DNA of 64,000 nt from Thermodesulfobacteriota bacterium (GTDB lineage: Bacteria; Desulfobacterota; Desulfobacteria; Desulfobacterales; UBA11574): the NCBI GenBank assembly GCA_042573625.1, contig JBHPCZ010000001.1:12859-76858 (forward strand), in the 5' to 3' direction. A program made the translations under genes and the position numbers. The notes beneath the pieces were generated by a model that ran no database searches, was not told the origin of the DNA, and was given only the letters and a program-made list of their open reading frames with translations. Of the stretch, positions 18,890-35,866 are shown in pieces (position 1 is the stretch's first letter; every line of letters begins with the position of its first letter).

Positions 18890-19094
18890 ATATGTAATAT
18901 TTTAGACAAGATTTGCTGGATTAACCAGGTTTATCAATATACTGCCTGCCGGCGGATTGCCTTTTCCCATTTTCATCAGGAAAATGGGGGGAAAAGTATC
19001 CTGAATATCCTGTTGATCCTGTCAGAAAAGCCAATTCAAAGAGAACCGGGCTCAGCAATATATTTATTGACAATTCAATTAACTTCCAAAGTTG

Positions 19095-19916
19095 ATGACA
19101 GTTAAACATCTCCAGAAAAAAGAAAAACAGCAGAATCCGACTTGCAACCTTTCCGTATGTGTGCTGGGTAGCGGCAGCAAGGGTAACGCCATATTTATTT
19201 CAGACGGTTCCACCTCAATTCTGGTTGATGCGGGCCTTTCCGGGATCGAAATCGAACGCAGACTGAAATCAAAAGGGCTTTCTCCTGAAAACCTGGATGC
19301 CATCCTTGTCTCTCATGAGCATGTTGATCATATAAAGAGCGCCGGGGTGCTTTCTCGTCGTTTTGACCTGCCGGTATATATCAGTTGCAACACAGGAAAA
19401 GTCGCCTCAACACAGCTGGGAACAGTAAAGAAACTCAGGAATTTCGAGTGCGGCTCGGCTTTCAAAATAAAGAATTTAACCGTACACCCCTTCTCTCTGC
19501 CCCATGACGCTAAGGATCCGTCCGGGTTTACGGTGAGACTTGACAGCAAAAAGATCGGGATTGCCACCGATCTCGGCACTGCAACCGCCATGGTTAAATC
19601 GCATCTTAAGGATTGCGCGTTGCTGATTCTTGAAGCCAATCATGATCCGGCCATGCTTGAAAACGGGCCTTATCCGTGGCCCCTGAAACAGCGCATCAAG
19701 AGCAGGACCGGTCATCTTTCAAATGAAGCCTCCAAAATTCTCCTCAAGGAATTACTCCACGACCGACTCCAGCATGTGATCCTGGCTCACCTGAGTGAAA
19801 TCAACAACACGCCCCAAAAAGCCGTCAGCGTTATCGAACCGTCGCTGACATCTTCCGACACAAAGCTGCATGTCGCATTCCAGGACAGGTGCGGGGATCT
19901 GCTGCATCTCAAATAA
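19095..19916 (+). CDS. MBL-fold metallo-hydrolase
   Basis: Contains SHEHVDHI (HxHxDH) and downstream His/Asp ligands. ATG at 19095 is 3 nt inside the TTG-started ORF. Confidence 0.8.
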   Translation: MTVKHLQKKEKQQNPTCNLSVCVLGSGSKGNAIFISDGSTSILVDAGLSGIEIERRLKSKGLSPENLDAILVSHEHVDHIKSAGVLSRRFDLPVYISCNTGKVASTQLGTVKKLRNFECGSAFKIKNLTVHPFSLPHDAKDPSGFTVRLDSKKIGIATDLGTATAMVKSHLKDCALLILEANHDPAMLENGPYPWPLKQRIKSRTGHLSNEASKILLKELLHDRLQHVILAHLSEINNTPQKAVSVIEPSLTSSDTKLHVAFQDRCGDLLHLK

Positions 19917-20108
19917 TTTCCAGCCGGCGAGAAAGGCAGTTTTTGACGCCAAGACAATCGGAATCTTTTTTCCATATATTGATCTTTACCATTGACATAC
20001 ATCAATATATTGTATTAAGGGAGAAAAAATTCGCTGTTCAATCCTTTCTATAAAAACAGTCTTCATAAATTACAATGACCAGCCTTGCTTAGAAAGGTTT
20101 AAAACGAC

Positions 20109-21374
20109 ATGGCCCTAAACGTCGGATTTGTGTCTACCCGCTTAGCGGGTACAGATGGTGTGTCATTAGAAGCGAGTAAATGGGCGGACGTTTTTAATCA
20201 AAATGGCCACAGCTGTTTCTGGTTCGCGGGAAAGCTGGATCGGGACGCGGAAAAGAGTTTCATTGTCCCCGAGGCCCATTTTAAGCATAAAAAGAATCAG
20301 CGGATCAATGAACAGGTCCTGGGTAAAAAAGGTCGAACCCCCCGGGTAACCCGGGCGATTCACGACTTGAGGTCGCTGCTTAAACGTCAACTCCATACAT
20401 TCATTGATCGCTTTGGCATCGACCTTCTGATTGCCGAAAATGCTCTTTCCATACCGATGCATATTCCCCTGGGGTTGGCCTTAACCGAAACCATTGCCGA
20501 GACCCAGATCCCCACTATTTCGCACCATCATGACTTCTACTGGGAAAGAACCCGCTTTTCAGTGACCGCCATCAGCGACTATCTTCGAATGGCATTCCCC
20601 CCCAACCTGCCCAATATCCAGCACGTGGTTATCAATTCCGAATCTCAGGAGCAACTGGCACTTCGCACGGGGATATCGTCGGTCATCATTCCCAATGTTC
20701 TCGATTTTGACAATCCACCGCCGCTGGATGCTAACGGGACTCGTGTCTTCCGTAAAACCTTCAATTTGAAGCCTGATGACAGGATGATTTTGCAGCCCAC
20801 CCGTATCATACAACGAAAAGGAATTGAGCACGCCATCGAGCTGGTCAAGGAATTGAAGGATCCCCGAAACAAACTGATCGTATCCCATGATGCAGGTGAT
20901 GAAGGATTTGAATATGCCGAGTGGCTGAAAGAATATGCGGACGAACATGATGTAGACCTGCGGCTGGTGGCAACCCGCGTCGCAGATCCCTGGGGCAACA
21001 ATGGGGGCAACGGAGCGGAATACTCTCTCTGGGATGTCTATTCCTACGCTGACTTCATTACGTATCCGAGTATTTACGAAGGATTCGGCAATGCCTTCCT
21101 CGAGGCCATTTACTTTAAAAAACCGCTGTTGGTCAATCGCTATGCAACGTTTGTCAGAGATATTGAGCCCCAGGGGTTTGATCTGGCCGTCATGGACGGG
21201 TACCTCTCAAAGAAAACGGTTAAAACAGTTATAGGAATTCTGGAATCACCGGAGCGTAGAGAAAAAATGGTAAATTTGAACTATGAAATTGCCGCCCGGC
21301 ATTATTCATATTCCATACTACGGAAACAGCTCAATATCATTTTAAACAGTCTGGCGAGACAGTCTATTAATTAA
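20109..21374 (+). CDS. glycosyltransferase (GT-B fold, GT4-like)
   Basis: 421-aa ORF. The C-terminal half has the GT-B pattern (ADFITYPSIYEGFGNAFLEAIYFKKPLLVNRY), the E-x7-E-like region. Confidence 0.7.
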   Translation: MALNVGFVSTRLAGTDGVSLEASKWADVFNQNGHSCFWFAGKLDRDAEKSFIVPEAHFKHKKNQRINEQVLGKKGRTPRVTRAIHDLRSLLKRQLHTFIDRFGIDLLIAENALSIPMHIPLGLALTETIAETQIPTISHHHDFYWERTRFSVTAISDYLRMAFPPNLPNIQHVVINSESQEQLALRTGISSVIIPNVLDFDNPPPLDANGTRVFRKTFNLKPDDRMILQPTRIIQRKGIEHAIELVKELKDPRNKLIVSHDAGDEGFEYAEWLKEYADEHDVDLRLVATRVADPWGNNGGNGAEYSLWDVYSYADFITYPSIYEGFGNAFLEAIYFKKPLLVNRYATFVRDIEPQGFDLAVMDGYLSKKTVKTVIGILESPERREKMVNLNYEIAARHYSYSILRKQLNIILNSLARQSIN

Positions 21375-21510
21375 CTGCAAAAACTGAAATTCAACCTTAC
21401 ATCTCAAAATTTTAGTTCAAACTAAATCTGACACTATTCAGGTATCCATTACGTATCAAAGAATCCGTTACCATTTGATACTTGCAGATATCTGTACTTG
21501 TGGCCTGCCA

Positions 21511-21652
21511 AAAAACACTAATATATTGCATACGCATTCTTTATAGCCTGAAAACAAACCCCAGGTTAAAACTTCAATCCAAACATCCCACAATGTGGCA
21601 TTAACCGTTTGAAATAACATTCATTTTTGTTGACTCTCCGGTAACGTTGTGA
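21511..21652 (+). repeat. 5' promoter-region module, copy A (homologous to 30524-30669)
   Basis: Aligns by eye with copy B. Shares an exact 17-mer AAACATCCCACAATGTG (21581-21597 vs 30593-30609), the block TTCTTnATAGCCTrAAAAC, TAACCnnTTTGAA, and a TTGAC -35 box (21630-21635). Confidence 0.7.
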
Positions 21653-21711
21653 TTTAGAAACTTCTTTCTGAAACTATCACTGCGGTACATTTAGATTTGG
21701 AACCTACTGCT

Positions 21712-23907
21712 ATGAAACCGCTCCGGAGATTGCCACAGCCTGCCGACGCCATAATCCAGATTCTTATAGATAAGTCGTTTCTTTTTTTACTCTATAGAAC
21801 TGTTCTGCTTATTGTTTTTACCTTCTCTTTCGCACAGGCCGCCGAAGACCAGCCGGAGATACATCAGATGGAAGAGGTTACGGTAACCGCAACCCGGATG
21901 GAAAGAAAGGCCGTTGAAGTTCCGGCAAGCATTGCCGTTGTCGGGGAAAATGACATAAAAGACACCCGGATGTTTAACCTCAAAGAAGCACTGTTGGGCA
22001 TCCCCGGCGTTCTTATTGACACCCGCAACCAGGGCTACGATTCCCGACTCCTGATTCGGGGGGCCGGATTGAAAGCCAGGTACGGGGTGAGAGACATTAT
22101 GGTTTTGCTCAACGGCGTTCCGATTACTGATCCGGACAGCCTCTCCCGTCTGGATTTTATAGACACCCAGCTGATTCAAAGAATTGAGGTGGCCAAGGGC
22201 CCCAACTCCACCCTGTGGGGCGCTAATGCAGCCGGGGGCGTTATCAACATCATAACCAAAAATCCTCTGGACAGGCAGGGCGGCGTCTTTAAAATCGGTG
22301 CAGGGGACTATAACGCCCAAAATTATCATCTTTCCTATTCCGACGATCTGTCTGAGAACTTTTATTATACGGTAAGCGGAAGCCGCAGGCAGTCGGACAA
22401 TGACTGGCGTCGATGGAATGAGTTTTATACCAACCAGGGGGCTGTCCAGGCCGCTTATGTGTTTGAAGACGAATCTATCCTTGAAAACCACATCAGTTAT
22501 ACCAAAGCTTCACTGCAACTGCCCGGAAAATTGAACCAAACCCAGTTCGATCAGTACCAGCAAACGGGCGAAGCCCATGCGACCGATGGCCCCTGGCAGC
22601 ATTCGGGTAGATATTCTGAAACTTTCTTTTTCAGTTCGAAACTATCCAAAACCGTCGGCACTTTTGATTTCGAGCCCCTTTTATTTATCAACAGGTGGAC
22701 GCACCACCACCCTGTAACCGGAAGAATCAACGATTCCGATACACTCTCCTGCGGCACGGATATCCAGACAAACCTTCGGCATGCTTTCGGAAAAATGAAA
22801 GGGACGCTGACCGCCGGCGTTACCGCCCGGTTTGACAAGCAGGACACGGATTATTTTGAATATGCCGATGTGCTTAAGACCCCCGGCGGGAGAATTACTG
22901 CCACCCTTAGTGATACGCCCGGAAATTTGATCGAGATACAGAATCGCGGTGTCCAGCTTTACGGGGTGTATTTTCAGGAATCGATCCGGCCTTCAGATCG
23001 GTGGATTATCGACCTGGGTGTTCGGTTTGACATCATTGATTTCGATATCGATGGGACAAAAAGGGCCGAATACGACTATAGTACCGGAACGTACGTAGAA
23101 TGTCCGGACGCCGGTCTGACGAATTGCGGAAATTATCAGATCAATAAAACTTTTAACGACTTCAGCCCACGGGTCGGAGCGGTGGTCAAGCTGTCGGAAA
23201 GCACAAATTTGTATGGCAATATTTCCAAGGGCATTCAGACGCCCACCGAAGGAGAGATCAGCGAAAATCCCGATCTGGAACTTGTGGAAGTTGAAAACTA
23301 TGAAGTCGGTGTCAAACTGAGATATCCCGGATGCTCCCTGGAAACGGCCCTGTATTACTCTCCGGTAAAAAATGAAATCGTTAAGGTCGTTCAAGAAGAC
23401 GGCGATACCGAATACAGCAACGCCGGCAGGACCAGAAAAACAGGCTTTGAGCTGACAGGGTCCCTGGAGTTGATACCCCGGTTGACCCTGGGCGCCGCGT
23501 ATTCATTTACGCATTACACGTTCGAAGAATTCACAGAAACCATCAGGGTGGGTGCCTCGACGCAAAATATCGACCGAAGCGGCAACCGGCTGCCGTATAT
23601 CCCCGAGCATCAGTACTCGTTTTTTGCCGCTTACCGACATCCGTCGGGGTTGAAGTTCAAGCTTCAATCCCATACCTGGGGGTCCTATTACACCGACAAC
23701 GCCAATACCGAGAAATACAACGGATATGCTTTTATCACCGGCGTCATGATCGGGTATGAATGGAAAGCATTCAATATTGGACTAAACATTGACAACCTGT
23801 TTGACGAACACTATGCCGTGGAAGTCGAAAAGGACAGCAGCGGAATAAAACGCTATACGCCGGCCGCACCGAGAAGTTTTATACTCCGGGTTTCATACAA
23901 TTTCTGA
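21712..23907 (+). CDS. TonB-dependent outer-membrane receptor
   Basis: Signal peptide ending SFAQA. Plug region (EVTVTATR...VPASIAVV...LLGIPGV...RGAG) and a beta-barrel ending in a C-terminal aromatic residue (RVSYNF). Confidence 0.85.
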   Translation: MKPLRRLPQPADAIIQILIDKSFLFLLYRTVLLIVFTFSFAQAAEDQPEIHQMEEVTVTATRMERKAVEVPASIAVVGENDIKDTRMFNLKEALLGIPGVLIDTRNQGYDSRLLIRGAGLKARYGVRDIMVLLNGVPITDPDSLSRLDFIDTQLIQRIEVAKGPNSTLWGANAAGGVINIITKNPLDRQGGVFKIGAGDYNAQNYHLSYSDDLSENFYYTVSGSRRQSDNDWRRWNEFYTNQGAVQAAYVFEDESILENHISYTKASLQLPGKLNQTQFDQYQQTGEAHATDGPWQHSGRYSETFFFSSKLSKTVGTFDFEPLLFINRWTHHHPVTGRINDSDTLSCGTDIQTNLRHAFGKMKGTLTAGVTARFDKQDTDYFEYADVLKTPGGRITATLSDTPGNLIEIQNRGVQLYGVYFQESIRPSDRWIIDLGVRFDIIDFDIDGTKRAEYDYSTGTYVECPDAGLTNCGNYQINKTFNDFSPRVGAVVKLSESTNLYGNISKGIQTPTEGEISENPDLELVEVENYEVGVKLRYPGCSLETALYYSPVKNEIVKVVQEDGDTEYSNAGRTRKTGFELTGSLELIPRLTLGAAYSFTHYTFEEFTETIRVGASTQNIDRSGNRLPYIPEHQYSFFAAYRHPSGLKFKLQSHTWGSYYTDNANTEKYNGYAFITGVMIGYEWKAFNIGLNIDNLFDEHYAVEVEKDSSGIKRYTPAAPRSFILRVSYNF

Positions 23908-23918
23908 GGCAGACGAAA

Positions 23919-24551
23919 ATGCGCTACCGAAAAATCATCACTCTTGTTGCGGCAGTGGCCATCTCCCTGGCCGCCGCCACATACCGCTTTGGGGATTCAG
24001 CACACAGCATCGGTCTTGTTTCGCTCAAAGGCGGTAAGGTTAGACATCCCTTTGTTCTGAAAGGCGGGCAAAAACATTACAGCCTGATTGGCACCGCAAC
24101 CGTTCTCCCGCCCTATCGGGGCGATGTTCGAATTTCGCTCGAAGGCTGGCCTGAAATTGATCATGATATTTTTTTATCCGGACCGGTGATCGATTTCGAC
24201 CTGCATAAACTTCCGGAGTTACGGGACCGCACTCTTTACGGCCTCAAACCCCAAGACAGGATTGCTCTCTGGGTTCGGATACATCCTCCCGTATTCGACC
24301 CGGTGTGCCGTATGAAGGTCGAAGACGGATTCTTGAAATATCATTACGGATCCCGGCAATATCATTTCTGCTCGAAAGCATGCAGAAATGCTTTTCTAAA
24401 ACAACCTGAAAAATATACCGGCAAAGAAGGTGCCTGCGGGAAATACAACCTTGTTTTTCACGATACCAGATCTGGCGCACCGGTCTTGAATATGCCCGTG
24501 AGGTTCAAGGGAAAGGATAAAATGGATGGAAAAAGCCGGCACTCTCACTGA
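23919..24551 (+). CDS. secreted YHS/TRASH-domain metal-binding protein
   Basis: N-terminal signal/anchor. C-terminal DPVCRMKVEDGFLKYHYGSRQYHFCSKACRNAF matches the YHS (TRASH-like) Cys pattern. Confidence 0.7.
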   Translation: MRYRKIITLVAAVAISLAAATYRFGDSAHSIGLVSLKGGKVRHPFVLKGGQKHYSLIGTATVLPPYRGDVRISLEGWPEIDHDIFLSGPVIDFDLHKLPELRDRTLYGLKPQDRIALWVRIHPPVFDPVCRMKVEDGFLKYHYGSRQYHFCSKACRNAFLKQPEKYTGKEGACGKYNLVFHDTRSGAPVLNMPVRFKGKDKMDGKSRHSH

Positions 24552-25353
24552 AAAAAGTTTTTTTATCCGACATCGATACTGGATCATCGCCTTTTCAGCG
24601 TTGCTGTTTCTTCCACCGCTGTCATTTGTTTTCCAGTTTACCGGGGACAGCAACTTCTGCGGCACCTGGTGCCCAAGGATGTTTTTCGTATGGCGTCGGG
24701 GAATGCCAATTGGCGCTTTTTTAGCCTCTTTTTTAAGGAGCTACATGGGCGTTGCCCTTCTGTTCGGGATTCTGATCAGTACCTTTTTTTACAGCAGATA
24801 CTGGTGCAGCCATCTGTGTCCCATCGGGGGAATTATGGAGCTTGGCAGCACGTTGGTTCCGCGGTTTATAAAAATTAATTTTTCAAAAATTCCAGCCCCC
24901 TATTTCCGATACGGCTACCTGTCAGTCTACTTGATTGCCGCAGCAGCCGGCATCGGCAGCTTGTGCTGCGCTTACTGTAATTTTGCTGCCGTACCGCGGA
25001 TGTTCGGCGCCTTGGTTTCACCGGCGGACGTGACCTACTTTTTGAGAAAGGCCGGGCTGATCAACCTGGGCCTGGTCGTTTTCCTGGGCTTTATGTCCAG
25101 AGGAGGCCGAGCATACTGCAACCTGATCTGTCCAGTGGGTGCTCTGGATGCACTGTCAAACCGGCTGGGCAATCGTTGGGGAAAAAGGGTCAGGATTTCC
25201 GCTGAGATCTGTGACAATTGCGGCCAGTGCGTGGACAACTGTCCGGTATGGGCCATTGAAACCGGTGAAAAGACAAAAATCGATCCACATTCCTGCATCC
25301 CCTGCAGAATTTGTGAAATCTCCTGTCATAAAAATGCTATTGTTTATGAATAG
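24526..25353 (+). CDS. membrane-bound 4Fe-4S protein (NapH/MauN-like polyferredoxin)
   Basis: Several TM segments. Cys motifs CSHLCP and CNLICP, plus a C-terminal 2x[4Fe-4S] ferredoxin (CDNCGQCVDNCP, CIPCRICEISCH). Confidence 0.75.
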   Translation: MEKAGTLTEKSFFIRHRYWIIAFSALLFLPPLSFVFQFTGDSNFCGTWCPRMFFVWRRGMPIGAFLASFLRSYMGVALLFGILISTFFYSRYWCSHLCPIGGIMELGSTLVPRFIKINFSKIPAPYFRYGYLSVYLIAAAAGIGSLCCAYCNFAAVPRMFGALVSPADVTYFLRKAGLINLGLVVFLGFMSRGGRAYCNLICPVGALDALSNRLGNRWGKRVRISAEICDNCGQCVDNCPVWAIETGEKTKIDPHSCIPCRICEISCHKNAIVYE

Positions 25354-25497
25354 TTTTTCAGGAAGATGGAGGTTATGTGCACGTGTTGTTCCAATATCAG
25401 TTCAAGGAAAGTTTTGATAACTGCAATTACGACCAAGTATCAAGTATCAGATTTTTTGGTGATACCAGAATATCATATCACCAAGATGACAGGGATC

Positions 25498-25640
25498 TCT
25501 GAAAGTTAAAATATTTGTGATATTGTTTTCCGATAGGGCGAATCCATTTTGCGGGGTTTGCCTTTTTGATTTTTTGTGGATTACTCGATATGTATAATCG
25601 TGATAGCCCGGCTTCAGGTTGTGTTTATTGTAAGATATGC
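25498..25640 (+). repeat. 3' module, copy A (homologous to 31195-31340)
   Basis: Aligns with copy B across the terminator and about 60 nt beyond it. Shared blocks: TTGTGrTATyGTTTT, GGGCrAATCCATTT, GGGGTTTG, ATATGTA, GGCTTCAG and TTGTAAG. Confidence 0.7.
25537..25575 (+). terminator. rho-independent terminator inside 3' module A
   Basis: GGCGAATCC pairs with GGGTTTGCC (2 G-U pairs) around an 8-nt loop. Followed by TTTTTGATTTTTT. Lies between convergent genes. Confidence 0.6.
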
Positions 25641-25722
25641 CAAATTTGATTTCGGATAGAAACCTTCACTTTTCGGCAATTTAAAGTGTCACCATAGTCT
25701 ATGATCACTATACAAGCCAATT

Positions 25723-26628
25723 TTATTTTTTATATTGTCTACCACCGGAACCACCACCGGGACCGCCACCGAAACCACCACCGGGACCACCACCAAGACT
25801 ATCAATGGGGCTAGCATCGAAGTCGCCTGCCCCTCTTTGATCGTCAGTTTTCCAGGGTTGGGTATGTATATCGGAGCTAAGATTTTCTGCTCTTACCCCA
25901 TGACTGATAGCATGAGAATACTGGTTGGCAAGTTTGACTGGATCAGTGCTCCTGGAATGACTCATAAACGAATGGCGCAGCTGTTTCATTTCCTGGGTGC
26001 TGTATTGCTGATTATGTGCATGACACACTACGTCTTTTGCAATTCTAGATGAAACACCGAGACGGGCCATATCTCTGAGCGATAGAAAACTTTCCTGGGC
26101 AAGCGCTTCTGTGTTGGTTTTCGTTCTCTGTTGTGTTCTGTTCTGCAATCTATTCATGACCTGAACAGCATCCTTGTTGTGTATACCGGCTGTAAATCCC
26201 TCTGCAATAGCCTTCGTAATATCGTGTATACGATCTGTATTTTGCGTAATTTGTCTGGCATGATTATTTGCGATTGAGTAGCGATATCGTGTCCTCTCCA
26301 TTGCTCGAAGCACTAAATCTTGAGGAGCATTTTTGGCAAGACCCTCAAAAGCTTTATTCATAACAGGCTTAACCGGCAAACTTTCTTTTACAGTAGCCAT
26401 CAAGATCTGTTGTGCTCGTATGGTGTTTTGGTTCTGGTAATTGTTTTGTATCATCATTTTAGTCACTTTTACGGCTTCATCTCTATGAATACCAGCATTA
26501 ACCATGGCACGAGTATGGGTTCTGATCTGCTCGTTGGCTATTGTAGATAGTTCACGATCAACTTCATCCCCAAAAGCCAAGGATGCAACAAGGGAAATGC
26601 CGAATATGACAATTAAAAATTTTTTCAT
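25723..26628 (-). CDS. secreted helical protein with a Gly-rich C-terminal tail
   Basis: 301-aa ORF with signal peptide MKKFLIVIFGISLVASLAFG and tail GGGPGGGFGGGPGGGSGGRQYKK. Last gene of the ECF sigma operon. No family recognised. Confidence 0.6.
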   Translation of the reverse strand: MKKFLIVIFGISLVASLAFGDEVDRELSTIANEQIRTHTRAMVNAGIHRDEAVKVTKMMIQNNYQNQNTIRAQQILMATVKESLPVKPVMNKAFEGLAKNAPQDLVLRAMERTRYRYSIANNHARQITQNTDRIHDITKAIAEGFTAGIHNKDAVQVMNRLQNRTQQRTKTNTEALAQESFLSLRDMARLGVSSRIAKDVVCHAHNQQYSTQEMKQLRHSFMSHSRSTDPVKLANQYSHAISHGVRAENLSSDIHTQPWKTDDQRGAGDFDASPIDSLGGGPGGGFGGGPGGGSGGRQYKK

Positions 26629-26682
26629 GATTTCGTCCTATATTAAGGCTTTATTCTTTATAACGTATTTAGGGGTAAAAGG

Positions 26683-27009
26683 TTACATGTCCGGGACAAA
26701 AATACAATTTTCGGAACCAAAATCGTCCTTCTCTTTAAACCGACAGGGCGGTACATACACGATACCGTCTATAATATAAAAGTAAGTAAATTCTAATCCT
26801 GCTGGCATCGTCACCAACCAGGTCTTTGAATCAATTTTTTCTACCTGATGAAGTTGATATCCATCCTCTGAGGATGCAAATGAGACAGTATGTGCTTCCG
26901 GTTTTTCTAGATATATGTGTGTCAAATTTCCTTTAACTTGACAAAAATGGCCTGTACACCCCATTAAGCTCATTGCCAGAAATAAAGTTGCTGTAATAGA
27001 ACGTTTCAT
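26683..27009 (-). CDS. lipoprotein with a CBM48/AMPK-beta GBD-like (E-set) domain
   Basis: Lipobox LMGC. The C-terminus KDDFGSENCIFVP parallels PDDFGGENSIFYV of the adjacent anti-sigma factor. Confidence 0.6.
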   Translation of the reverse strand: MKRSITATLFLAMSLMGCTGHFCQVKGNLTHIYLEKPEAHTVSFASSEDGYQLHQVEKIDSKTWLVTMPAGLEFTYFYIIDGIVYVPPCRFKEKDDFGSENCIFVPDM

Positions 27010-27569
27010 ATTTTGTTCTTTACATAAAATATGGAGTTCTCACCACCAAAATCATCTGGCTCCCGGGTTAGTATCGTTGGATCAGCGAATGGTTGCTGGC
27101 CCTCTATCAAATAGGTAAAGCGATGCTCTCCTTCTTTCAATTCATAGGTGACCTCCCAGTACCCGCTGTTGCCGATTTTTTGCATTGGAACTCGTTCCCA
27201 TTCTGTAAAGCTCCCCGTGATCTCTACCTGGCTGACATTCGGTTTGTAAACTACAAATCGTTTCACTACCGGGCTAGGTATTGGCGACGGTACGGTAAGA
27301 AACAGATAAATAACTGTGGCGGCCAATGCCGATGTAACCAGACCCATCGGCTGAAAAAAGGGACTGAAAAATCTTTTCCAGCTAAAAGGTGTCATCACTT
27401 TAGCGGATGGAATATGTTCGACAACATCACTCTGGATGAGTTTTTCCTGATGCAATAATTCTAATACCTCATCGGTAAAAGATTTATCTTTTTGCATGGT
27501 TTCAATAAAATCAATTTTGTCATCAACGTTCATCTCATTATCAATAAACATGCTGATATTATAATTCAT
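27006..27569 (-). CDS. anti-sigma factor, single TM, extracytoplasmic CBM48-like domain
   Basis: 4-nt overlap with the downstream gene and directly abuts the sigma gene. One TM segment (GLVTSALAATVIYLFLTV). The C-terminal ITGSFTEWERVPM...GYWEV...LKEGEHRFTYLIEG...ADP resembles the AMPK-beta glycogen-binding module. Confidence 0.65.
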   Translation of the reverse strand: MNYNISMFIDNEMNVDDKIDFIETMQKDKSFTDEVLELLHQEKLIQSDVVEHIPSAKVMTPFSWKRFFSPFFQPMGLVTSALAATVIYLFLTVPSPIPSPVVKRFVVYKPNVSQVEITGSFTEWERVPMQKIGNSGYWEVTYELKEGEHRFTYLIEGQQPFADPTILTREPDDFGGENSIFYVKNKI

Positions 27570-28046
27570 TTAATCCTCTCCTGCCTGAAGAATCTCTTTT
27601 AGCCTGATACGGGCTCGGTGAACTTTGACTTTTACATTAGCCTCACTTATTCCGATTATGCTTGCAATTTCCCTATATGATAGATCACTGCTAACCGTTA
27701 GAGCAAGGATGTCTCTTTGGTCTTTATTGAGTTTGTGCATGGCGGACAGCACATTACGATACGACTCCCGCACTAAAGTCAGCTGTTCGGGGTCAATCGT
27801 TGTATCTTCGATGTCGTTTTCTATTTCTTTGTTGTACTTTTTTTTGCGAGCATTGTCCCAGACGGCGTTCCTTGCAATGGTGAACAGCAACGAAACATTT
27901 TGTGTCTGTGGACCATATTTTTCCAGATAACGAGTGAAACTCTCCTGCATTATATCGCTGGATAGCTGATAGTTGCTGGTCAAACGCATCAGATAGCCGA
28001 ACAACTTATCTTTTTGAGTCCAGTAAAATGGACTAAATTTATCCAC
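27570..28046 (-). CDS. ECF-type RNA polymerase sigma factor
   Basis: 158 aa. Region 2 (SSDIMQESFTRYL) and region 4 HTH (LSYREIASIIGISEANVKVKVHRARIRLK). Confidence 0.85.
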   Translation of the reverse strand: MDKFSPFYWTQKDKLFGYLMRLTSNYQLSSDIMQESFTRYLEKYGPQTQNVSLLFTIARNAVWDNARKKKYNKEIENDIEDTTIDPEQLTLVRESYRNVLSAMHKLNKDQRDILALTVSSDLSYREIASIIGISEANVKVKVHRARIRLKEILQAGED

Positions 28047-28055
28047 GATACTTTT

Positions 28056-28083
28056 ATAACGTACGAAACATCAAAAGGTTACA
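28056..28083 (-). promoter_or_regulatory. ECF-type promoter (autoregulatory candidate) TGTAACCTTTT-N11-CGTTAT
   Basis: The minus strand reads TGTAACCTTTTGATGTTTCGTACGTTAT and ends 9 nt before the sigma ATG (28046). It has the same motif and spacing as the plus-strand copy at 28228. Confidence 0.55.
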
Positions 28084-28227
28084 GAATTATTTAATTTCCA
28101 GATAATCTACAGTAAAGCTTATACTCTATAGTATATGTTCTTATCAATTCAATTCTACAGCTGCTTCAACGGTTGTGGCTGCTTTCACCTGCCAACCGAC
28201 CATTTATGTAATTTTTTTTTGATATGT

Positions 28228-28255
28228 TGTAACCTTTTCACACCCCATACGTTAT
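28228..28255 (+). promoter_or_regulatory. ECF-type promoter, divergent twin of 28056-28083
   Basis: TGTAACCTTTTCACACCCCATACGTTAT. The -35-like (GTAACC) and -10-like (CGTTAT) boxes are identical and the offset is the same 22 nt. Confidence 0.55.
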
Positions 28256-28659
28256 CAATTGTTAAAGGGTGAGATGGATTGAGAAAGGTCACATCACCTA
28301 CTTGTTGAAACTGATGCTGAATTTGTTTTAACTTGCTAATTCCCTGCAGCTTGCTGCAGGGAGATTCATTGATGAACTAAAAACATCGAAAGAGAAGTGA
28401 ATAGAACTATTTTTTATGTAAGGAGGTATGAATTAAAAAAGTATAATAAACGCTTAAATTATTCAACACTTAGTCTAATTATTAACAAATATAATGATGT
28501 TATATCAAGGAATCTGGATGCGACTTCGTCAGATAGCCGTTCTTTTTATTTGCTCAATTTATTAGCGAAAGGAGGTGAAAATTAAGGCCGAGGGTGTGGA
28601 AAGATGAAAGATGTCAGAAAATCCAAAATGATTACAACGAATTATATGGAGGTAAAATT

Positions 28660-29073
28660 ATGACGTTTCAATATTCCCAAAAGGTCATTTTTAGTGCTGT
28701 TTGTCTTTTCATGTTGTCTCTAACTGCTTTTTCTTTGGCGCCAAAAGATTGCCACGCTTTTGAGATTACGATTGATGTGGCTCCAAACGTTCTTTCTCTT
28801 CAGAATAATGGCCAGGTGGTGACTGTACATACAGATATTCCTTATGATGATGTTGAGCTTACTAGTGTGCATATAAATGGTGTGCTTATTGATAGCTGGG
28901 AGTCGGATGTTCGTGGCTACTTTGTGGCCAGGTTTGTAATGAACGCGATTAAAAACTTGCCTTTAGTTATCGGCGATTACAATACATTCACGTTAGTTGG
29001 AAAAACTTTTTCGGACGGAGAATTTTCGGGGTCTCAAGATATTCTTGTTGTGGAGAATGATCCGAAGAATTAG
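28660..29073 (+). CDS. secreted hypothetical protein (beta-rich)
   Basis: ATG at 28660 lies 6 nt after GGAGGT. Hydrophobic signal segment VIFSAVCLFMLSLTAFSLA. The ORF-track GTG start at 28594 adds a non-signal extension. Confidence 0.6.
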   Translation: MTFQYSQKVIFSAVCLFMLSLTAFSLAPKDCHAFEITIDVAPNVLSLQNNGQVVTVHTDIPYDDVELTSVHINGVLIDSWESDVRGYFVARFVMNAIKNLPLVIGDYNTFTLVGKTFSDGEFSGSQDILVVENDPKN

Positions 29074-29517
29074 TAACGGTGCCGGTCAAGGATGAAGTGT
29101 GTTCCGAAATAACCTGCTGGGATTAATTGAAATACATCGAAAATTAGATATAACAAAACATTCGAGAGGGACCGGGAACTTACCCAAAGAAAGCGGACAC
29201 CAAAAGCTAACTAACGGAGGGTGTCCAAATGGCAAGAATCAAAGGGCTTCAAAGCCCGTATAAACCGCGTTTATACCAGGAACCCAAAGGTTCATCGATT
29301 TTTCAAACGAACTGGAAATTTACGGATAGATCAACCCGCACCCCATGCGATCAACCAGGTTAATGGGATGCTACTTGAAGGGAAGATCACCGGGAAATGC
29401 CGCGGCTTTTTATCGGCGCCTTTTATCCATTTTTTTGGCTTTAGAATCGACCTTCGGTGATCGTTTCCCGGCCCCTCATTTCCACCGTTCAAAAAACAGC
29501 AATTCAATCAGGAAAGG

Positions 29518-29664
29518 ATGAAAAAACTTTTTTTGATCTTGGTAATCTTTGTATCGTTTACAGCGTTTGCTTTTGCCGGTGGTGACCAAAATCATGGCAG
29601 CAAGGGACAAGGCAGTACAGGTAGTGACGGACAAGGCCAAACAACCCAACAGCGAGGCGATTAA
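29518..29664 (+). CDS. small secreted Gly/Gln-rich peptide (48 aa), below the ORF-track length cutoff
   Basis: Hand translation: MKKLFLILVIFVSFTAFAFAGGDQNHGSKGQGSTGSDGQGQTTQQRGD. SD AGGAAAGG directly upstream. Classic signal peptide. Confidence 0.5.
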   Translation: MKKLFLILVIFVSFTAFAFAGGDQNHGSKGQGSTGSDGQGQTTQQRGD

Positions 29665-29791
29665 ATAATTCACTCAACAAAAAGGGGGATAAATGGAACT
29701 TGTGACGACGCCACTTCTTGAAAAATGGAAGGTGGAAAGTGCTGAGTTTCTGTGTGTACTGCCGTAAAAACAGGATTAGGGTTTCTTTTTT

Positions 29792-30010
29792 ATGATTAAT
29801 ATTGTCAGAAATAGAAGAGGTAGACGACCCAGAACAGCCAGACGGGCATCCTTAAGAGACAGGCGGGCATTCTTAAGAGACAGACGGGCATCCTTAATAG
29901 ATAGAAGGGCATTCTTATCTGTAGTCCGTATTCCTAATAGAAGAAGTGGAAGAGACAGAAGGAGTTGGTCTGACCGCAGAGGTGGCGTTGAACGCAGAAG
30001 TATTCACTAA
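29792..30010 (+). CDS. Arg-rich DRR-repeat small protein (coding status uncertain)
   Basis: 72-aa ORF containing RRASLRD RRAFLRD RRASLID RRAFLSV, then RRSGRD RRSWSD RRGGVE RRS. The RR periodicity continues past the DNA repeat. SD is weak. Confidence 0.4.
   Translation: MINIVRNRRGRRPRTARRASLRDRRAFLRDRRASLIDRRAFLSVVRIPNRRSGRDRRSWSDRRGGVERRSIH
29839..29943. repeat. tandem 21-bp repeats (4 good copies plus 1 degenerate)
   Basis: CAGACGGGCATCCTTAAGAGA / CAGGCGGGCATTCTTAAGAGA / CAGACGGGCATCCTTAATAGA / TAGAAGGGCATTCTTATCTGT / AGTCCGTATTCCTAATAGA. Confidence 0.85.
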
Positions 30011-30069
30011 TTGAAGTGAAACTAAATATCACTCCCAAGTGTCTTAGATAAAGGGTTTTGGAATTTACC

Positions 30070-30444
30070 ATGGATAGTAAGGAATTTAAAAGCTTCCGCC
30101 TAAAAATGAACAAGACGCAACACCAGGTGAGCCGTCTACTCGGAACGTCTATAAAGACTATACAAAGTTATGAACAGGGTTGTCGAAACATACCAAATCA
30201 CGCAGAGCGGCAGATGCTTTATCTAATTTCCAGGATGAAAGAAAGCCACAATACTCAAAAACCATGCTGGGTTATCAAACAATGTCCTCGATGGGTAAAA
30301 AATAAATGCCCGGCCTGGGAATTTGATTCGGGGGATTTATGCTGGTTTATTAATGGTACATATTGTGGTGGTAATGTTGTTGAGAGCTGGGAACAAAAAA
30401 TGAAACTTTGCCGGTCCTGTGAAGCTTTCTCATTCTTGAGCTAA
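30070..30444 (+). CDS. XRE-family HTH regulator with a C-terminal Cys/Trp-rich (two-CW-like) domain
   Basis: HTH is FRLKMNKTQHQVSRLLGTSIKTIQSYEQG. C-terminus is PCWVIKQCPRWVKNKCPAWEF..DLCWFINGTYCGG...CRSCEAF. ATG at 30070 preferred over the TTG at 30058. Confidence 0.75.
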   Translation: MDSKEFKSFRLKMNKTQHQVSRLLGTSIKTIQSYEQGCRNIPNHAERQMLYLISRMKESHNTQKPCWVIKQCPRWVKNKCPAWEFDSGDLCWFINGTYCGGNVVESWEQKMKLCRSCEAFSFLS

Positions 30445-30523
30445 CTCAAAAACACTTCTAATCATACAACGATACTTTCGATAATGGTTTGAAATCCTCT
30501 GTCCGAAACCTGTGTGTTCTGCA

Positions 30524-30669
30524 ATAAAACACACCAAATATTGTATTCGTCTTTCTTCATAGCCTAAAAACCTTGTACCACAACTCCTATAAAAACATCC
30601 CACAATGTGTGATAACCTATTTGAATTACTACATAAATTGTCATAATTTTCTTGACAACGTCACAATCC
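30524..30669 (+). repeat. 5' promoter-region module, copy B (homologous to 21511-21652)
   Basis: See copy A. Carries the exact 17-mer at 30593-30609. Confidence 0.7.
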
Positions 30670-30680
30670 TTGTTCATAAT
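30652..30680 (+). promoter_or_regulatory. sigma-70-type promoter
   Basis: TTGACA (30652-30657), a 17-nt spacer, then CATAAT (30675-30680). Lies about 120 nt upstream of the 30802 gene. Confidence 0.55.
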
Positions 30681-30721
30681 TTACTGTGGCCAATCTTTCT
30701 AATTCAAAAAAGGGATATAAC

Positions 30722-30808
30722 ATGAATTGTATCCCCTTTGATATCCCCTGCTTGCCATGGGGAGCGTCATTTAATTTAATCAGTAACAGAAAGGGGGCAG
30801 AATGTTAA
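30722..30808 (+). CDS. candidate upstream ORF / leader peptide (28 aa) overlapping the start of the next gene
   Basis: Hand translation: MNCIPFDIPCLPWGASFNLISNRKGAEC. AAGGGA lies 6 nt upstream. The stop TAA (30806-30808) overlaps the ATG at 30802. The region also folds into two hairpins. Confidence 0.3.
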   Translation: MNCIPFDIPCLPWGASFNLISNRKGAEC

Positions 30809-31152
30809 AAAAAATGTTCAAGATTATTTTTTTCGTTTTTCTGGTGGGGCTTTTGATTTCGCCGGCGTGGAGCTCAGACAACATCGTCATCGACACGGAT
30901 CGTAATTTAATTCTCGCTGGAAGCGGAGGAGGAGACCAAGACAGAGACCAAGACAGAAAGCGTGACGAATCTTGTAACGACCTCGCCCCTTACAACCCTG
31001 TTCATCCTTTAATTCTCGCTAGAGGAGGAAACGGTGGCAACGGCGGCGGCGGTGGCCACGGCGGCGGTGGCGGCGGCGATCAAAGCAGGGACAGGGACTG
31101 TGACGATGGTGACGGCCCTCAACCTGAAGGCCCTAACGGCCCCGGCACCTGA
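30802..31152 (+). CDS. secreted Gly/Asp/His-rich repeat protein
   Basis: Signal peptide ending PAWS. Internal duplication: LILAGSGGGDQDRDQDRKRDESCND versus LILARGGNGGNGGGGGHGGGGGGDQSRDRDCDDGD. SD GGGGG upstream. Confidence 0.65.
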   Translation: MLKKMFKIIFFVFLVGLLISPAWSSDNIVIDTDRNLILAGSGGGDQDRDQDRKRDESCNDLAPYNPVHPLILARGGNGGNGGGGGHGGGGGGDQSRDRDCDDGDGPQPEGPNGPGT

Positions 31153-31194
31153 GATTGTAACCCGTGACGGAACTTGCGACGACGCCACTTCTTA

Positions 31195-31340
31195 AAAACC
31201 TGAAAATGTTGTGGTATCGTTTTTCAATAAGGGCAAATCCATTTGATGGGGTTTGTCCTTTTATTTTTATGATATATGTAATCAGTAAGAGCAGGCTTCA
31301 GCCTGTGATATTTGTAAGTATCTGCAATAACCTGCAAATA
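31195..31340 (+). repeat. 3' module, copy B (homologous to 25498-25640)
   Basis: See copy A. Confidence 0.7.
31230..31267 (+). terminator. rho-independent terminator inside 3' module B
   Basis: GGGCAAATCC pairs with GGGTTTGTCC (2 G-U pairs) around an 8-nt loop. Followed by TTTTATTTTT. Confidence 0.6.
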
Positions 31341-31536
31341 TCAAAAAGCTGAGTTTTTCCAGATATCCATTCCATATTACAAAATGTAAATGTCAGATAT
31401 GGTTGTGTCTGCAATTGGATAAATGCACAATTAAATCTTGGTCAATGCAATTAAATCCACCTGAAAACATCTAATCCGGGTTTTAAATCCTAACTGAGCA
31501 AAAGCGAGTGCCCCTTTATTTTTAGAACCATTCGAA

Positions 31537-32643
31537 TTAAATTTTCACCAGCTCATAATTTCGACTTCCAAGCCCCAGCTGCTCGGCATATTCCAACTGA
31601 TACGCCCAGTCCACCTTGGGATAAACCCCCCGAAACTTGTCTTCACCCGGTTTCATGTGGGTCTGGAGACAGGACCCGGGAAGCGCGTGCTCCTGGTTGA
31701 CAAGATCAACGGACGCCTGGTCGATAGCTACCGGATCTTTTGATGCAACAACGCCGATATCCCTGACGATGGGGGCATCGTTCATGGGATAACAGTCGCA
31801 TGCCGGAGAGACATCGGTGATGAAATTAATCGACAACGTCTTTTGGGATTTTCCCTTTAATACGCCCATGGTGTATTCAATCATGTTTTCCAAAAAAACA
31901 GGGATCGCCTGGTTCCATTCTATTTCTATGGCGGCGCTGGGGCAGACAAGGATACATTCGCCGCAACCGATACACTTTTTGGCATCCAGCACTGCTTTCT
32001 CCTCGACCAGGGAAAGGGCGTTCTGGGAACAGTGACCGACACAGTCTCCGCAGCCGATACACTTTTTCGTAATGACCTTTGGCGCCACGGTTGAATGCTG
32101 CGCCAGTTTGCCCCGCCGGGATGCGCACCCCATGCCCAGATTTTTTATCGCCCCGCCAAATCCGGAAAGCTCATGCCCTTTGAAATGCGCCACCGATATC
32201 AGCGCGTCGGCCTCGACGATATCCGTTCCAATGTAAACTCTCTTAAAATTCTTCTGATTGACAATGATGGATGTTTCGCTCCTGCCCCTTAGCCCATCGG
32301 CAATGATAATGGGCGCATCCACCACAGCGTAGGCAAAACCGTTTTGAATCGCTGTTGTCAGGTGATGGGGAGAGTCGCTCCGTGTCCCTGAATAGAGTGT
32401 GTTGGCATCTGTAAGAAATGGGACGCCATTAACACCTTTGATCGTTTCGACAATTTTCCGTAAAAATACAGGCCGTATAAATGCGGTGTTTCCCATTTCT
32501 CCAAAATGAAGCTTCACCGCAACAAGATCTCTTTCTTTGACAGCTTCGGAAAGACCCGCGGTTTCAATGAGCCTTCCCAGTTTTGCGACAAGGCTTTCTT
32601 TCATCGTTGCCCTAAGATCGATAAAATAGACTTTGCTTTTCAT
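31537..32643 (-). CDS. DUF362 family protein with an inserted 2x[4Fe-4S] ferredoxin domain
   Basis: N-terminus (VYFIDLR...VAVKLHFGE.GN..FIRP.F) is typical of DUF362. Also CIGCGDCVGHC and CIGCGECILVCP. Confidence 0.8.
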   Translation of the reverse strand: MKSKVYFIDLRATMKESLVAKLGRLIETAGLSEAVKERDLVAVKLHFGEMGNTAFIRPVFLRKIVETIKGVNGVPFLTDANTLYSGTRSDSPHHLTTAIQNGFAYAVVDAPIIIADGLRGRSETSIIVNQKNFKRVYIGTDIVEADALISVAHFKGHELSGFGGAIKNLGMGCASRRGKLAQHSTVAPKVITKKCIGCGDCVGHCSQNALSLVEEKAVLDAKKCIGCGECILVCPSAAIEIEWNQAIPVFLENMIEYTMGVLKGKSQKTLSINFITDVSPACDCYPMNDAPIVRDIGVVASKDPVAIDQASVDLVNQEHALPGSCLQTHMKPGEDKFRGVYPKVDWAYQLEYAEQLGLGSRNYELVKI

Positions 32644-32833
32644 TTTATCCCCCGGTCATTTTATAAAATTATTGATATCATTTGCCAGACAATTGGAAAG
32701 AATTAATTCTTTGTGCTCAAAATGGCTTCATGCTTTTCTGTTCTTCTCCCTTTCTTTCAGCGTCTGTTTTAAAACCGCCAGCATTAAACGGTCCTTTTCC
32801 CGAAAGGCTTCCTGTTTGATTTCGATAAGGTAT

Positions 32834-33241
32834 TCAAGACTTAGAATGCGTAGAATTTCGATGATCTGCGGTACGGTTTCTTGCATGTTTCAGCCTGGTA
32901 ATGGATAACATATTCTGCTGTAATACGTTCAAGCACTCTGCCGGTGTTAGAGAGAACATCCAACGAATCAAGGTCAGATCAACCCCGTCTTTGCTGTATG
33001 CCGGATTATCTTCCTGTGAATATACGATCAAATGAGATGGCTTATCCATACCGCCTTCTTTTCCTGCCAAAATGATACAGATGTTTACATCAATTAGCAC
33101 ATACCACGGACAAACCGCAAATTGTTTATGTGAAGATCTGGTCGATGGGTCCAATGAATCTGCGCTGACAGGCAAAAAAAATGCAGATTGAAAATCGGTG
33201 CGCCGGATGCATACATCTTGCAATTTCATGAGGATATCCAT
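32834..33241 (-). CDS. hypothetical protein
   Basis: 135-aa ORF with no recognised motif. Its 3' end overlaps a 52-aa minus-strand ORF (32728-32886, MQETVPQIIEILRILSLEYLIEIKQEAFREKDRL...) by 53 nt, so one of the two may be spurious. Confidence 0.35.
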   Translation of the reverse strand: MDILMKLQDVCIRRTDFQSAFFLPVSADSLDPSTRSSHKQFAVCPWYVLIDVNICIILAGKEGGMDKPSHLIVYSQEDNPAYSKDGVDLTLIRWMFSLTPAECLNVLQQNMLSITRLKHARNRTADHRNSTHSKS

Positions 33242-33276
33242 ATAGTCAGCAGGTAAAAACTCAGCGAAGGATAAAA

Positions 33277-33978: not shown

Positions 33979-33995
33979 CCGGCGGAGGACGGGGG

Positions 33996-34850: not shown

Positions 34851-34997
34851 CCATACACCTCCATCTGGGCAATTTTTTGAAGTGATCTATTGTTGATAGA
34901 AAACCAATAATGTATGATATAGGAAAAAGAGTCAATAGGTTGATGCCATGCTCCTAATTATGAATAGAAGGGGTTTCAAAACCTTAGAGTGAAGCCT

Positions 34998-35120
34998 TTT
35001 GACAATTTTGCGAAAAAGTTCTTAGCGAAGCGAAGTGTAAAATTCGTAACTGTCTGAGGGATTTATCCCGAGTTTTACGAATTTAGCGAAGCGAGCTTAG
35101 AACTTGTCAAAATTGTCAAA
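34998..35120. repeat. roughly 120-bp imperfect palindromic element
   Basis: Arms TTTGACAATTTTG...AAGTTCTTAGC...AAATTCGTAAC and GTTTTACGAATTT...GCTTAGAACTT...CAAAATTGTCAAA surround a small central hairpin (GAGGGATTTATCCCGAG). Confidence 0.75.
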
Positions 35121-35170
35121 CCAGCGAACGGAAGATTTTGAAACAGCTTCTATCAAACAAGAACGGGTCA

Positions 35171-35656: not shown

Positions 35657-35866
35657 ACCGGATGGCGTATGATTCTTTTAATACCCCGCCCGCTTGTGGC
35701 GGAGAGTTTCATTGGAAGTGAATCTTGTATAGAAACAGAATATTTTTTGACACTATTTCCTAAAAATAAGTTGTATCTGAGACTCGACTGCTGATATTAA
35801 ACCAAACCAGATTAAGCTCTCATTAAACCCATAAAAATGGCAAAGGTCTTCTAAAAGGAATTTCCA

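Follow-up and report, generated by a model that had tools for sequence, protein, structure and literature searches.

Two terminator-type hairpins in one window

We analysed a stretch of 64,000 nt from a Thermodesulfobacteriota bacterium (assembly GCA_042573625.1, contig JBHPCZ010000001.1, positions 12,859 to 76,858 of the forward strand), in the following called the window. It contains two intergenic hairpins, each followed by a T-tract and embedded in similar flanking sequence. An earlier reading of the letters without database searches (the sequence-only reading) had taken these sites for two copies of one conserved 3' module ending in a terminator and had offered three explanations: a small RNA (sRNA) derived from a 3' untranslated region, an independent sRNA, or the end of a duplicated cassette. 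Here we describe the repeat unit to which both sites belong. The parts of the two copies and the genes preceding them are listed below. Modules are named A to E, V is a variable stretch between A and B, and L-numbers denote loci fetched for comparison.

21697-25353 (+): transcription unit before copy 1, encoding a TonB-dependent receptor, a YHS-domain protein and a NapH-like 4Fe-4S membrane protein
25406-25466 (+): copy 1, module A, CTGCAATTAC..., with the core GATAAC at 25416-25421
25514-25534 (+): copy 1, module B, TTTGTGATATTGTTTTCCGAT, conserved block with a GATAT core abutting the 5' side of the hairpin
25535-25564 (+): copy 1, hairpin (terminator scan, RNA folding), stem of 11 bp with arms AGGGCGAATCC (25535-25545) and GGGTTTGCCTT (25554-25564), 8-nt loop ATTTTGCG
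25565-25575 (+): copy 1, T-tract, tail TTTGATTTTTT
25587-25599 (+): copy 1, module C, GATATGTATAATC
25610-25639 (+): copy 1, module D, GGCTTCAGGTTGTG..TTGTAAGATATG
25650-25686 (+): copy 1, optional module E, TTTCGGATAGAAACCTTCACTTTTCGGCAATTTAAAG, common to L023, L003, L014, L025 and L016
30802-31152 (+): gene before copy 2, encoding a Gly/Asp-rich signal-peptide protein of 116 amino acids (aa)
31208-31228 (+): copy 2, module B, GTTGTGGTATCGTTTTTCAAT
31229-31260 (+): copy 2, hairpin, stem of 12 bp with arms AAGGGCAAATCC (31229-31240) and GGGTTTGTCCTT (31249-31260), 8-nt loop ATTTGATG
31261-31270 (+): copy 2, T-tract, tail TTATTTTTAT
31271-31318 (+): copy 2, modules C GATATATGTAATC and D GGCTTCAGCCTGTG..TTTGTAAG, right end of an inserted segment (see below)
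31319-31368 (+): A-V-B'-like stretch of the backbone, TATCTGCAATAACCTGCAAATATCAAAAAGC..CCAGATATCC, common to the relatives L158/L159

A terminator scan of window positions 20000-36000 returned the two hairpins as its top two hits, and RNA folding gave -17.8 kcal/mol (z = -3.1) for copy 1 and -16.3 kcal/mol (z = -4.5) for copy 2. Both sites are present where the sequence-only reading had placed them. Copy 1 lies 182 nt past the NapH-like gene, copy 2 lies 77 nt past the stop codon of the 116-aa open reading frame (ORF), and both sit at convergent gene junctions. A blastn comparison within the window aligned 25515-25634 with 31209-31318 (122 columns, 72% identity, E = 1.2e-9); the alignment contains an 11-nt indel. 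The similarity of the flanks noted earlier is real on the downstream side, where it covers about 60-75 nt and includes ATATGTA, GGCTTCAG and TTGTAAG; upstream it extends over only about 20-25 nt, the length of module B, and not over the roughly 40 nt that had been proposed. Copy 1 is composed of A (partly duplicated), B, hairpin, C, D and E and belongs to a subfamily with a 12-nt insert. Copy 2 is composed of B, hairpin, C and D followed by the A-V-B'-like stretch, and an upstream A is absent. No third full copy was found in the window, only the partial module-A duplicate at 25406-25466.

A dispersed repeat family

We searched 596 Gb of sequence for the exact hairpin pattern GGGCRAATCCATTT, N2-5, GGGGTTTG, for which we estimate about 0.5 matches by chance. 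Matches were obtained in 25 contigs, essentially all of them metagenome-assembled genomes of Desulfobacterales; the few with other bin labels are near-identical to Desulfobacterales contigs of the same studies. The flanks are conserved in all 25 contigs, and with a profile built from them we detected additional copies in these loci, as many as four in 8 kb. A second pattern ignored the hairpin and used only the flanks from B to C (TGATATCGTTTTT, N35-65, GATATATG). It matched at least 120 metagenome contigs, and the full element is present in 113 of the 120 matches listed. With a family hidden Markov model (HMM) run in nhmmer, 243 copies were found in 653 kb of fetched DNA. Homologs outside this locus, whose absence would have refuted the sequence-only reading by its own criterion, are thus abundant. 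The 11-nt indel that separates the window copies is a difference between subfamilies and occurs in other genomes as well, and each window copy is no nearer to its partner than to copies elsewhere.

We consider it probable that the window modules are copies of a dispersed non-coding repeat with a unit of about 150-250 nt, located in intergenic DNA of uncultured, mostly marine-sediment Desulfobacterales, in which a Rho-independent terminator forms the invariant heart and whose units delimit exchangeable gene blocks.

Comparison with Rfam 15 at the gathering threshold returned only a tRNA for the window, and in E-value mode the two copies and the L101 array gave hits at chance level. No family match was found in PLSDB plasmids or IMG/VR, and a full-text literature search for the core sequences and for Desulfobacterales repeat families yielded no relevant description. 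The part of the Breaker-lab survey available to us, which includes Desulfobacula toluolica, lists no matching motif. Exact look-ups of three window proteins gave no match. The family is a previously undescribed, lineage-specific, dispersed mosaic intergenic repeat with a terminator.

Anatomy of the repeat unit

The consensus unit reads from left to right as follows:

Left core: AGAT(A)TCT; units are bounded by AGATATCT cores
Module A: CTGCTATAAA, consensus GCTAT.AAT
V: about 25 nt, subfamily-dependent, with TAAAAT at its end
Module B: TTGTGATATCGTTTTTCAATAA
Hairpin: GGGCAAATCC, loop ATTTnnn, GGGGTTTGCC, with the T-tract following directly
Optional insert: about 12 nt, between the T-tract and C
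Module C: GATATATGTAAT
Spacer between C and D: about 15 nt, variable
Module D: GGCTTCAGG..TGGCAAG (in the consensus table GGCTTCAGGTTGTGC..TGGCAAG)
Right core: ATATCT
Module E, optional: TTTCGGnTAnAAACCTTCACTTTTCGGAAATTGAA

Module order is identical in all copies, and GATAT(C/A) is repeated in both end cores, in B and in C. The 243 copies fall into 181 with the full A-B-hairpin arrangement, 32 with B and hairpin that lack A, 19 consisting of the 3' half of the hairpin with C and D only, and 11 with A and B that lack the hairpin; 32 of the 243 run into the end of a locus or contig.

In several copies (L003, L012, L014, L016) module D and the box after it show TTGGCA, a spacing of 16 nt and TATGAT or TATAAA, which reads as a good sigma-70-type promoter. 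In L016 the promoter-like sequence is 30 nt away from the start codon that follows, which has a Shine-Dalgarno box. These parts are degenerate in both window copies, which fits the lack of a same-strand gene downstream. A sigma-54 promoter was also considered for TGGCAAG-N4-CTGCT (GG-GC spacing of 10), and rejected, as on the left side GG is missing or spaced by 8-9 nt, and on the right side GC is usually missing.

Two further candidates within the unit were dismissed. A hidden ORF was suggested by a 62-aa frame that spans copy 2 (31164-31352); copy 1 has no matching frame, and indels of 1 and 11 nt distinguish the two copies. A second conserved hairpin at GGCTTCAG pairs in copy 2 alone. Small ORFs overlap both units, one of 47 aa (25366-25509) and the one of 62 aa just mentioned, and neither is kept between the copies. 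In L026, a relative that lacks the element, a 73-aa 'gene' has been called just past the NapH-like gene (1014-1235). All three are likely annotation artefacts of intergenic DNA.

The hairpin as a predicted strand-specific terminator

A hairpin of at least 7 bp with a T-rich tail is formed by 166 of 200 unique copies. Mean folding free energies of the 200 were -14.6 kcal/mol for the + strand and -8.7 kcal/mol for the - strand, and the + strand folded better in 191. One-step departures from the commonest stem pair were of the G.U type in 134 cases and of the A.C type in 28, both types arising through equally easy transitions, where copies are related by descent and the counts are therefore not independent events. 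Two stem positions switch freely among G.U, G-C and A-U. A bias of G.U over A.C is predicted by selection on an RNA hairpin of the sense strand and is the opposite of that predicted by a DNA cruciform or a bottom-strand attC site.

Because of this pairing bias in the + strand RNA, the U-tract and the position after genes, the invariant heart is, as judged from its sequence, an intrinsic (Rho-independent) terminator: a predicted RNA hairpin GGGCAAAUCC/GGGGUUUGCC of the + strand with a U-tract behind it. At this hairpin the transcripts of preceding genes or operons would end, in the window those of the TonB-receptor/YHS/NapH-like operon and of the gene for the 116-aa secreted protein. The terminator-type structure recognised in the sequence-only reading, a stem with a T-tract, is thereby borne out, its pairing in the + strand RNA being kept family-wide. 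As in other intrinsic terminators, a G+C-rich stem of 11-12 bp encloses a loop of 7-8 nt and runs into a U-tract, and the structure is located downstream of genes and co-oriented with them. Ordinary terminators share structure only, whereas in this family the sequence of the stem and some 100 nt of flanks are kept across many genomes and next to many unrelated genes. That the conserved flanks are not explained by termination was also a correct observation; they are the other modules of one repeat unit.

Orientation and neighbouring genes

All copies lie on one strand in 64 of the 66 multi-copy loci, with a median spacing of 1.27 kb. In a first set of loci, with crude ORF calls, 23 copies between co-directional genes were in sense and none in antisense orientation; seven copies of the same set lay at convergent and five at divergent junctions. 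Random placement in bacterial genomes would, by our expectation, give about these shares of the three kinds of intergenic region, and the constraint on placement is one of orientation only. In 108 of 139 cases a copy and the ORF upstream of it share a strand (median gap 114 nt), and a same-strand ORF follows 117 of 134 full copies (median gap 130 nt). A sense-oriented unit would end one transcription unit at the hairpin and start the next from the putative promoter in D. Such a role would explain why only sense copies survive between co-directional genes.

In the dense array of L101, eight copies lie within 6 kb, and single small genes stand between them. Read from their translations, these genes encode a DUF488-like protein, a small membrane protein of 128 aa, a GNAT-like protein, an ABM-like protein (inverted), a GYD-like protein and unknowns. 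Similar arrays of co-oriented, small, unrelated ORFs with a repeat after each are present in L111, L005, L016, L050, L087 and L100. A scan of 148 neighbouring proteins returned 179 Pfam families, none of them dominant.

Secreted proteins with Gly-rich tails (GGGPGGG or GYGPRGGG) recur beside the units, in L005 (5063-5566), L020, L111 (6815-7324) and L145. In the window, secreted proteins of this type are encoded beside the units at 25723-26628 and 30802-31152.

A 9.8-kb insert bounded by family junctions

Relatives of the window were found via homologs of its DUF362 gene (31537-32643, - strand). In L160 and L161 the DUF362 gene directly adjoins glycosyltransferase and metallo-beta-lactamase-fold genes (window 19092-21374); in L158 and L159 a hybrid kinase gene of 2.3 kb is located between them. 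L158 and L159 (89-92% nt identity) lack positions 21493-31318 of the window, the limits of L158 homology being 21492 and 31319. The junctions are as follows, a slash marking the breakpoint:

21493-31318 (no strand assigned): segment absent from the closest relatives, with both copies, the TonB-receptor/YHS/NapH-like operon, an extracytoplasmic function (ECF) sigma/anti-sigma pair and small secreted-protein genes
21486-21493 (no strand assigned): left junction core AGATATCT; on the side of the glycosyltransferase gene, L158/L159 are homologous up to 21492
31316-31323: right junction core AAGTATCT
Window: left junction ..TTGCAGATATC/TGTACTTG.., right junction ..TTTGTAAGTAT/CTGCAATAAC..
L158: left junction ..TTCGCAAGATATC/AAAGG.., right junction ..TTAGATAC/CTGCAATAAC..

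Closing the gap gives TTGCAGATATCTGCAATAAC, the canonical D-A junction of the family, and the segment is therefore an insert in such a junction, or a replacement. Copy 2 (B-hairpin-C-D) represents its right end, and the 50 nt beyond (31319-31368) are backbone. Copy 1 splits the insert into a TonB-receptor half with a G+C content of 0.48 and an ECF/secreted-protein half (25640-31318) with 0.409, compared to 0.465 in the flanks. Homology to L026 (94% nt identity in the region of the NapH-like gene) is lost at 25423, inside GATAAC/TGCAAT at the start of module A, with different DNA beyond.

Of the three explanations proposed earlier, the end of a duplicated cassette comes nearest: copy 2 ends the 9.8-kb segment and copy 1 lies where synteny with L026 stops. 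The duplication itself did not hold up, since the two copies belong to different subfamilies and are not mutual duplicates.

Several results weigh against a dispersed repeat that delimits gene blocks. Only two copies are present in the 64-kb window, none was found in about 60 kb of its nearest relatives, and none in about 77 kb from six loci of other Desulfobacterales (Desulfosarcina sp. and others); the densities given above are biased upward, as the fetched loci were chosen for containing the element. Because those relatives and the six other loci are free of copies, the family appears to have come into this genome with the inserted DNA. Marks of transposition were also sought. The consensus ends share only a palindromic core of 6-8 nt in inverted orientation and no further terminal inverted repeat; a target-site duplication was not found, at most 12% of copies sharing a 4-mer at any pair of offsets, with the signal inside the conserved core; and no transposase or recombinase linked to the family was detected among the scanned neighbours. 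A miniature inverted-repeat transposable element was rejected for want of terminal inverted repeats and target-site duplication. Finally, five or six of 44 copies follow a divergent upstream gene and have nothing to terminate, so that the unit must be more than a terminator.

Gene-order breaks at module edges

L016 and L012 are 99.8% identical over 3.4 kb, and similarity is lost exactly at GATATC, the left edge of a unit. One 128-aa gene shows 96% identity between L101 and L111, and its neighbours differ on either side. The block shared by these loci reaches from ..TAT/CTGCTAT at the start of A to GTGATATC/ in B, both ends lying at GATATC-like cores. Upstream of the gene stands an A-V-B' without hairpin, resulting in a 'filled' unit A-V-B'-gene-B-hairpin-C.

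A comparison of every two loci with a common stretch of at least 350 nt (identity 88% or higher) gave 71 internal block ends. About 30 of these lie within elements, where they cluster before and after CTGCTAT, before B, before and after C, after the hairpin and before TGGCAAG. At 8 of 55 junctions both partners have a GATATC-like core no more than 8 nt away, with about one such case expected. The breaks thus go with the element, not with a single point in it, and recombination or gene conversion between copies would fit at least as well as a dedicated site-specific reaction. The conserved modules would provide portable homology and recurrent junctions for the swapping of gene blocks; the favoured route of exchange would be homologous recombination or gene conversion between copies, together with insertion at the D-A junction.

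In an alternative reading, the units would be junction sites of gene-cassette exchange, with site-specific recombination at GATATC/AGATATCT cores, chiefly at the D-A junction TGGCAAGATATC/TGCTATAAA. Gene blocks of any size would be placed between a promoter-like module and a terminator, as in an integron but with another site and an enzyme other than the integron integrase, and the window insert would consist of two such cassettes. Arrays of co-oriented unrelated small genes separated by one unit each, the filled unit and the changing neighbours of the 128-aa gene are in line with this, as are the breaks at GATATC or GATAAC in L016/L012 and window/L026 and the excess of cores at shared junctions. 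The window insert and the unrelated 2.3-kb insert of L158 moreover occupy one point, with GATATC on the left and CTGCAATAAC on the right. However, most junctions are spread over several module edges, as repeat recombination or gene conversion would give, the L158 insert lacks a B-hairpin-C-D end, and no recombinase is consistently adjacent, nor does any Pfam family dominate the neighbours. We think that exchange by a dedicated enzyme is unlikely. If true, it would represent a second, independent solution to gene capture besides integrons.

One candidate enzyme was followed up. Adjacent genes for two Xer-like tyrosine recombinases (223 and 292 aa) lie by the L115 array (77-1595), and a third is found on the opposite strand in L154. 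After a homolog search and inspection of five further loci, of which one contained the element and that not adjacent to the recombinase, the pair was rejected as the family's recombinase. The Xer-like pair (also in L154-L157) occurs in many near-identical variants on short contigs, often by IS110, IS66 or IS630 transposases, and looks like an independent multi-copy mobile element of the same community.

Small RNA and attenuator interpretations

Module A could also serve as promoter of a multi-copy sRNA gene, A-V-B-hairpin, whose product of about 50-85 nt would consist of the variable 5' V, the conserved single-stranded UGUGAUAUCGUUUUUCAAUAA and its own terminator. This interpretation is compatible with a dispersed repeat family. 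A is located about 50 nt upstream of the hairpin in 181 of the 243 copies, TGCTATAAA in A can be read as an extended -10 box, and a TAAAAT box precedes B by 12-14 nt. Copies after divergent genes would need a promoter of their own to be transcribed, and one V subfamily forms a stem of 5-6 bp with a compensatory change (CACACG/CGTGTG versus CACAA/TTGTG). Yet A is absent from window copy 2 and 32 other copies, no -35 box is conserved, and the final T usual in a -10 box is missing from the putative one. No structure of V is common to the subfamilies, and Rfam gave no match for the family. From the letters of the boxes we infer that modules A and D may have promoter activity; that the unit as a whole is an sRNA gene seems to us rather improbable. 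Multi-copy sRNA gene families are known from Qrr1-5 of Vibrio and the tandem NsiR1 array of Nostoc. These resemble the present family in that short units are repeated, each made up of a promoter-like box, conserved body and intrinsic terminator, but here copy number and density (up to eight copies in 6 kb) are far above those of known sRNA families, and many copies have no promoter-like module.

The chances of a 5' leader with a conditional terminator, in which a factor binding module B would govern read-through into the downstream gene, are slight. The frequent same-strand ORF at a short distance downstream and the position of B, the best-conserved single-stranded stretch, directly at the 5' arm of the hairpin would agree with such an attenuator. 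On the other hand both window copies, and about 13% of all copies, face a convergent gene. No alternative antiterminator pairing is kept, the genes downstream have no function in common, and in several copies D and the box after it look like a sigma-70-type promoter of their own. Neither the sRNA nor the attenuator accounts for copies without A or for copies facing convergent genes.

A local duplication, in which a gene or cassette had its 3' end copied a single time, followed by divergence of the copies, is suggested by the distance of only 5.7 kb between the copies in one window and by the 5' regions of both transcription units, which are about 70% alike over about 170 nt; it is refuted by the hundreds of homologs in other organisms and by an indel that splits subfamilies found elsewhere.

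Further features of the window

The motif TGTAACCTTTT-N12-ACGTTAT(A/C)AA occurs three times, at 26657-26687 (-), 28053-28083 (-) and 28228-28258 (+), and has the AAC, 16 nt, CGT layout of ECF-sigma promoters. The sites precede the ECF sigma gene (27570-28046, -), a gene for a 301-aa secreted protein (25723-26628, -) and + strand genes starting near 28594, and they probably constitute the regulon of the local ECF sigma/anti-sigma pair. A 30-mer outside the repeat family, GGAACTTG(T/C)GACGACGCCACTTCTT(G/A)AAAA, is present at 29695-29724 and 31169-31198 with 93% identity, each time following the gene for a small signal-peptide protein in which Gly, Asp and Gln abound (29518-29664 and 30802-31152). 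It resembles an ECF-type promoter of the form GGAACTT..TCTT.

The similar 5' regions mentioned above, 21450-21620 upstream of the TonB-receptor operon and 30460-30630 upstream of the 116-aa gene, do not belong to the family and had no match in any fetched locus. They have in common the core AAACATCCCACAATGTG with the palindrome CCACAATGTGG, which may be a common operator. A 72-aa Arg-rich ORF (29792-30010, +) shows (R/D)RRA(S/F)L(R/I)D motifs and tandem 21-nt repeats at 29833-29916. The protein encoded after it (30058-30444, 128 aa) has an HTH_3 domain at its N-terminus and a C-terminal half rich in Cys and Trp. At 58604-60039, six diverged copies of a 50-nt segment are spaced by multiples of 126 nt, which probably reflects a repeat-domain protein gene (42-aa repeats) on the - strand.

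Comparison with known repeat systems

Lineage-specific interspersed repeats shape the boundaries of transcription units and genome plasticity. Those described stem mainly from a few cultured groups, such as repetitive extragenic palindromic (REP) units and bacterial interspersed mosaic elements (BIMEs) of enterobacteria, the Correia elements and Neisseria intergenic mosaic elements (NIMEs) of Neisseria, and the pneumococcal BOX and RUP repeats. In the literature searched no comparable family was described for sulfate-reducing Desulfobacterales. The present family offers a ready-made strand-specific terminator in many copies and marks the borders of accessory gene blocks. Its HMM could be used as a lineage marker and as an aid in annotating island borders. 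It also breaks metagenome assemblies, as seen from the copies at locus or contig ends, and gives rise to spurious calls of small ORFs such as those over copy 2 and in L026.

Integron cassette arrays with attC sites (sedentary chromosomal integrons; PMC11014356) resemble the family in layout: small, unrelated, co-oriented accessory genes, a repeat after each, and the same gene among different neighbours. The likeness ends there. The family consensus does not contain the attC core sites RYYYAAC/GTTRRRY. Folding of the sense strand is more stable by about 6 kcal/mol and the bottom strand contains A.C mismatches, whereas attC folds on the bottom strand. No integron integrase was found among the neighbours, the tyrosine recombinases detected scoring 89.6 bits against an IntI cut-off of 265. 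The repeat also carries a terminator and promoter-like boxes, while attC cassettes are mostly promoterless. Identity with attC was rejected for the missing core sites and the wrong strand.

REPs are palindromes of 20-40 nt, often in inverted pairs and linked to REP-associated tyrosine transposases (RAYTs), and REP/BIME elements can act as 3' stabilisers of mRNA or as terminators. Like those of enterobacteria and pseudomonads, the family is extragenic, multi-copy, hairpin-forming and mosaic with other motifs. It differs in its longer units with single hairpins pointing in one direction. Only one RAYT-like ORF (L006) was found in 138 loci, with no dominant neighbour family. A REP-RAYT identity fails on both orientation and RAYT association.

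By analogy, the nearest counterparts appear to be the NIME/dRS3 and Correia elements of Neisseria, together with the enterobacterial BIMEs. NIMEs consist of RS units bounded by dRS3. NIME and Correia elements are lineage-specific, abundant, non-coding intergenic units of about 50-150 nt with short palindromic cores at their bounds; they form arrays by variable genes, affect transcription as promoters or terminators and mark sites of gene exchange. The family described here is likewise lineage-specific, intergenic and non-coding, with palindromic cores at its bounds and an organisation in arrays. Unlike Correia elements, it has neither terminal inverted repeats nor a TA duplication. Unlike both, it belongs to another phylum, is unrelated in sequence and is locked in orientation around a canonical central terminator.

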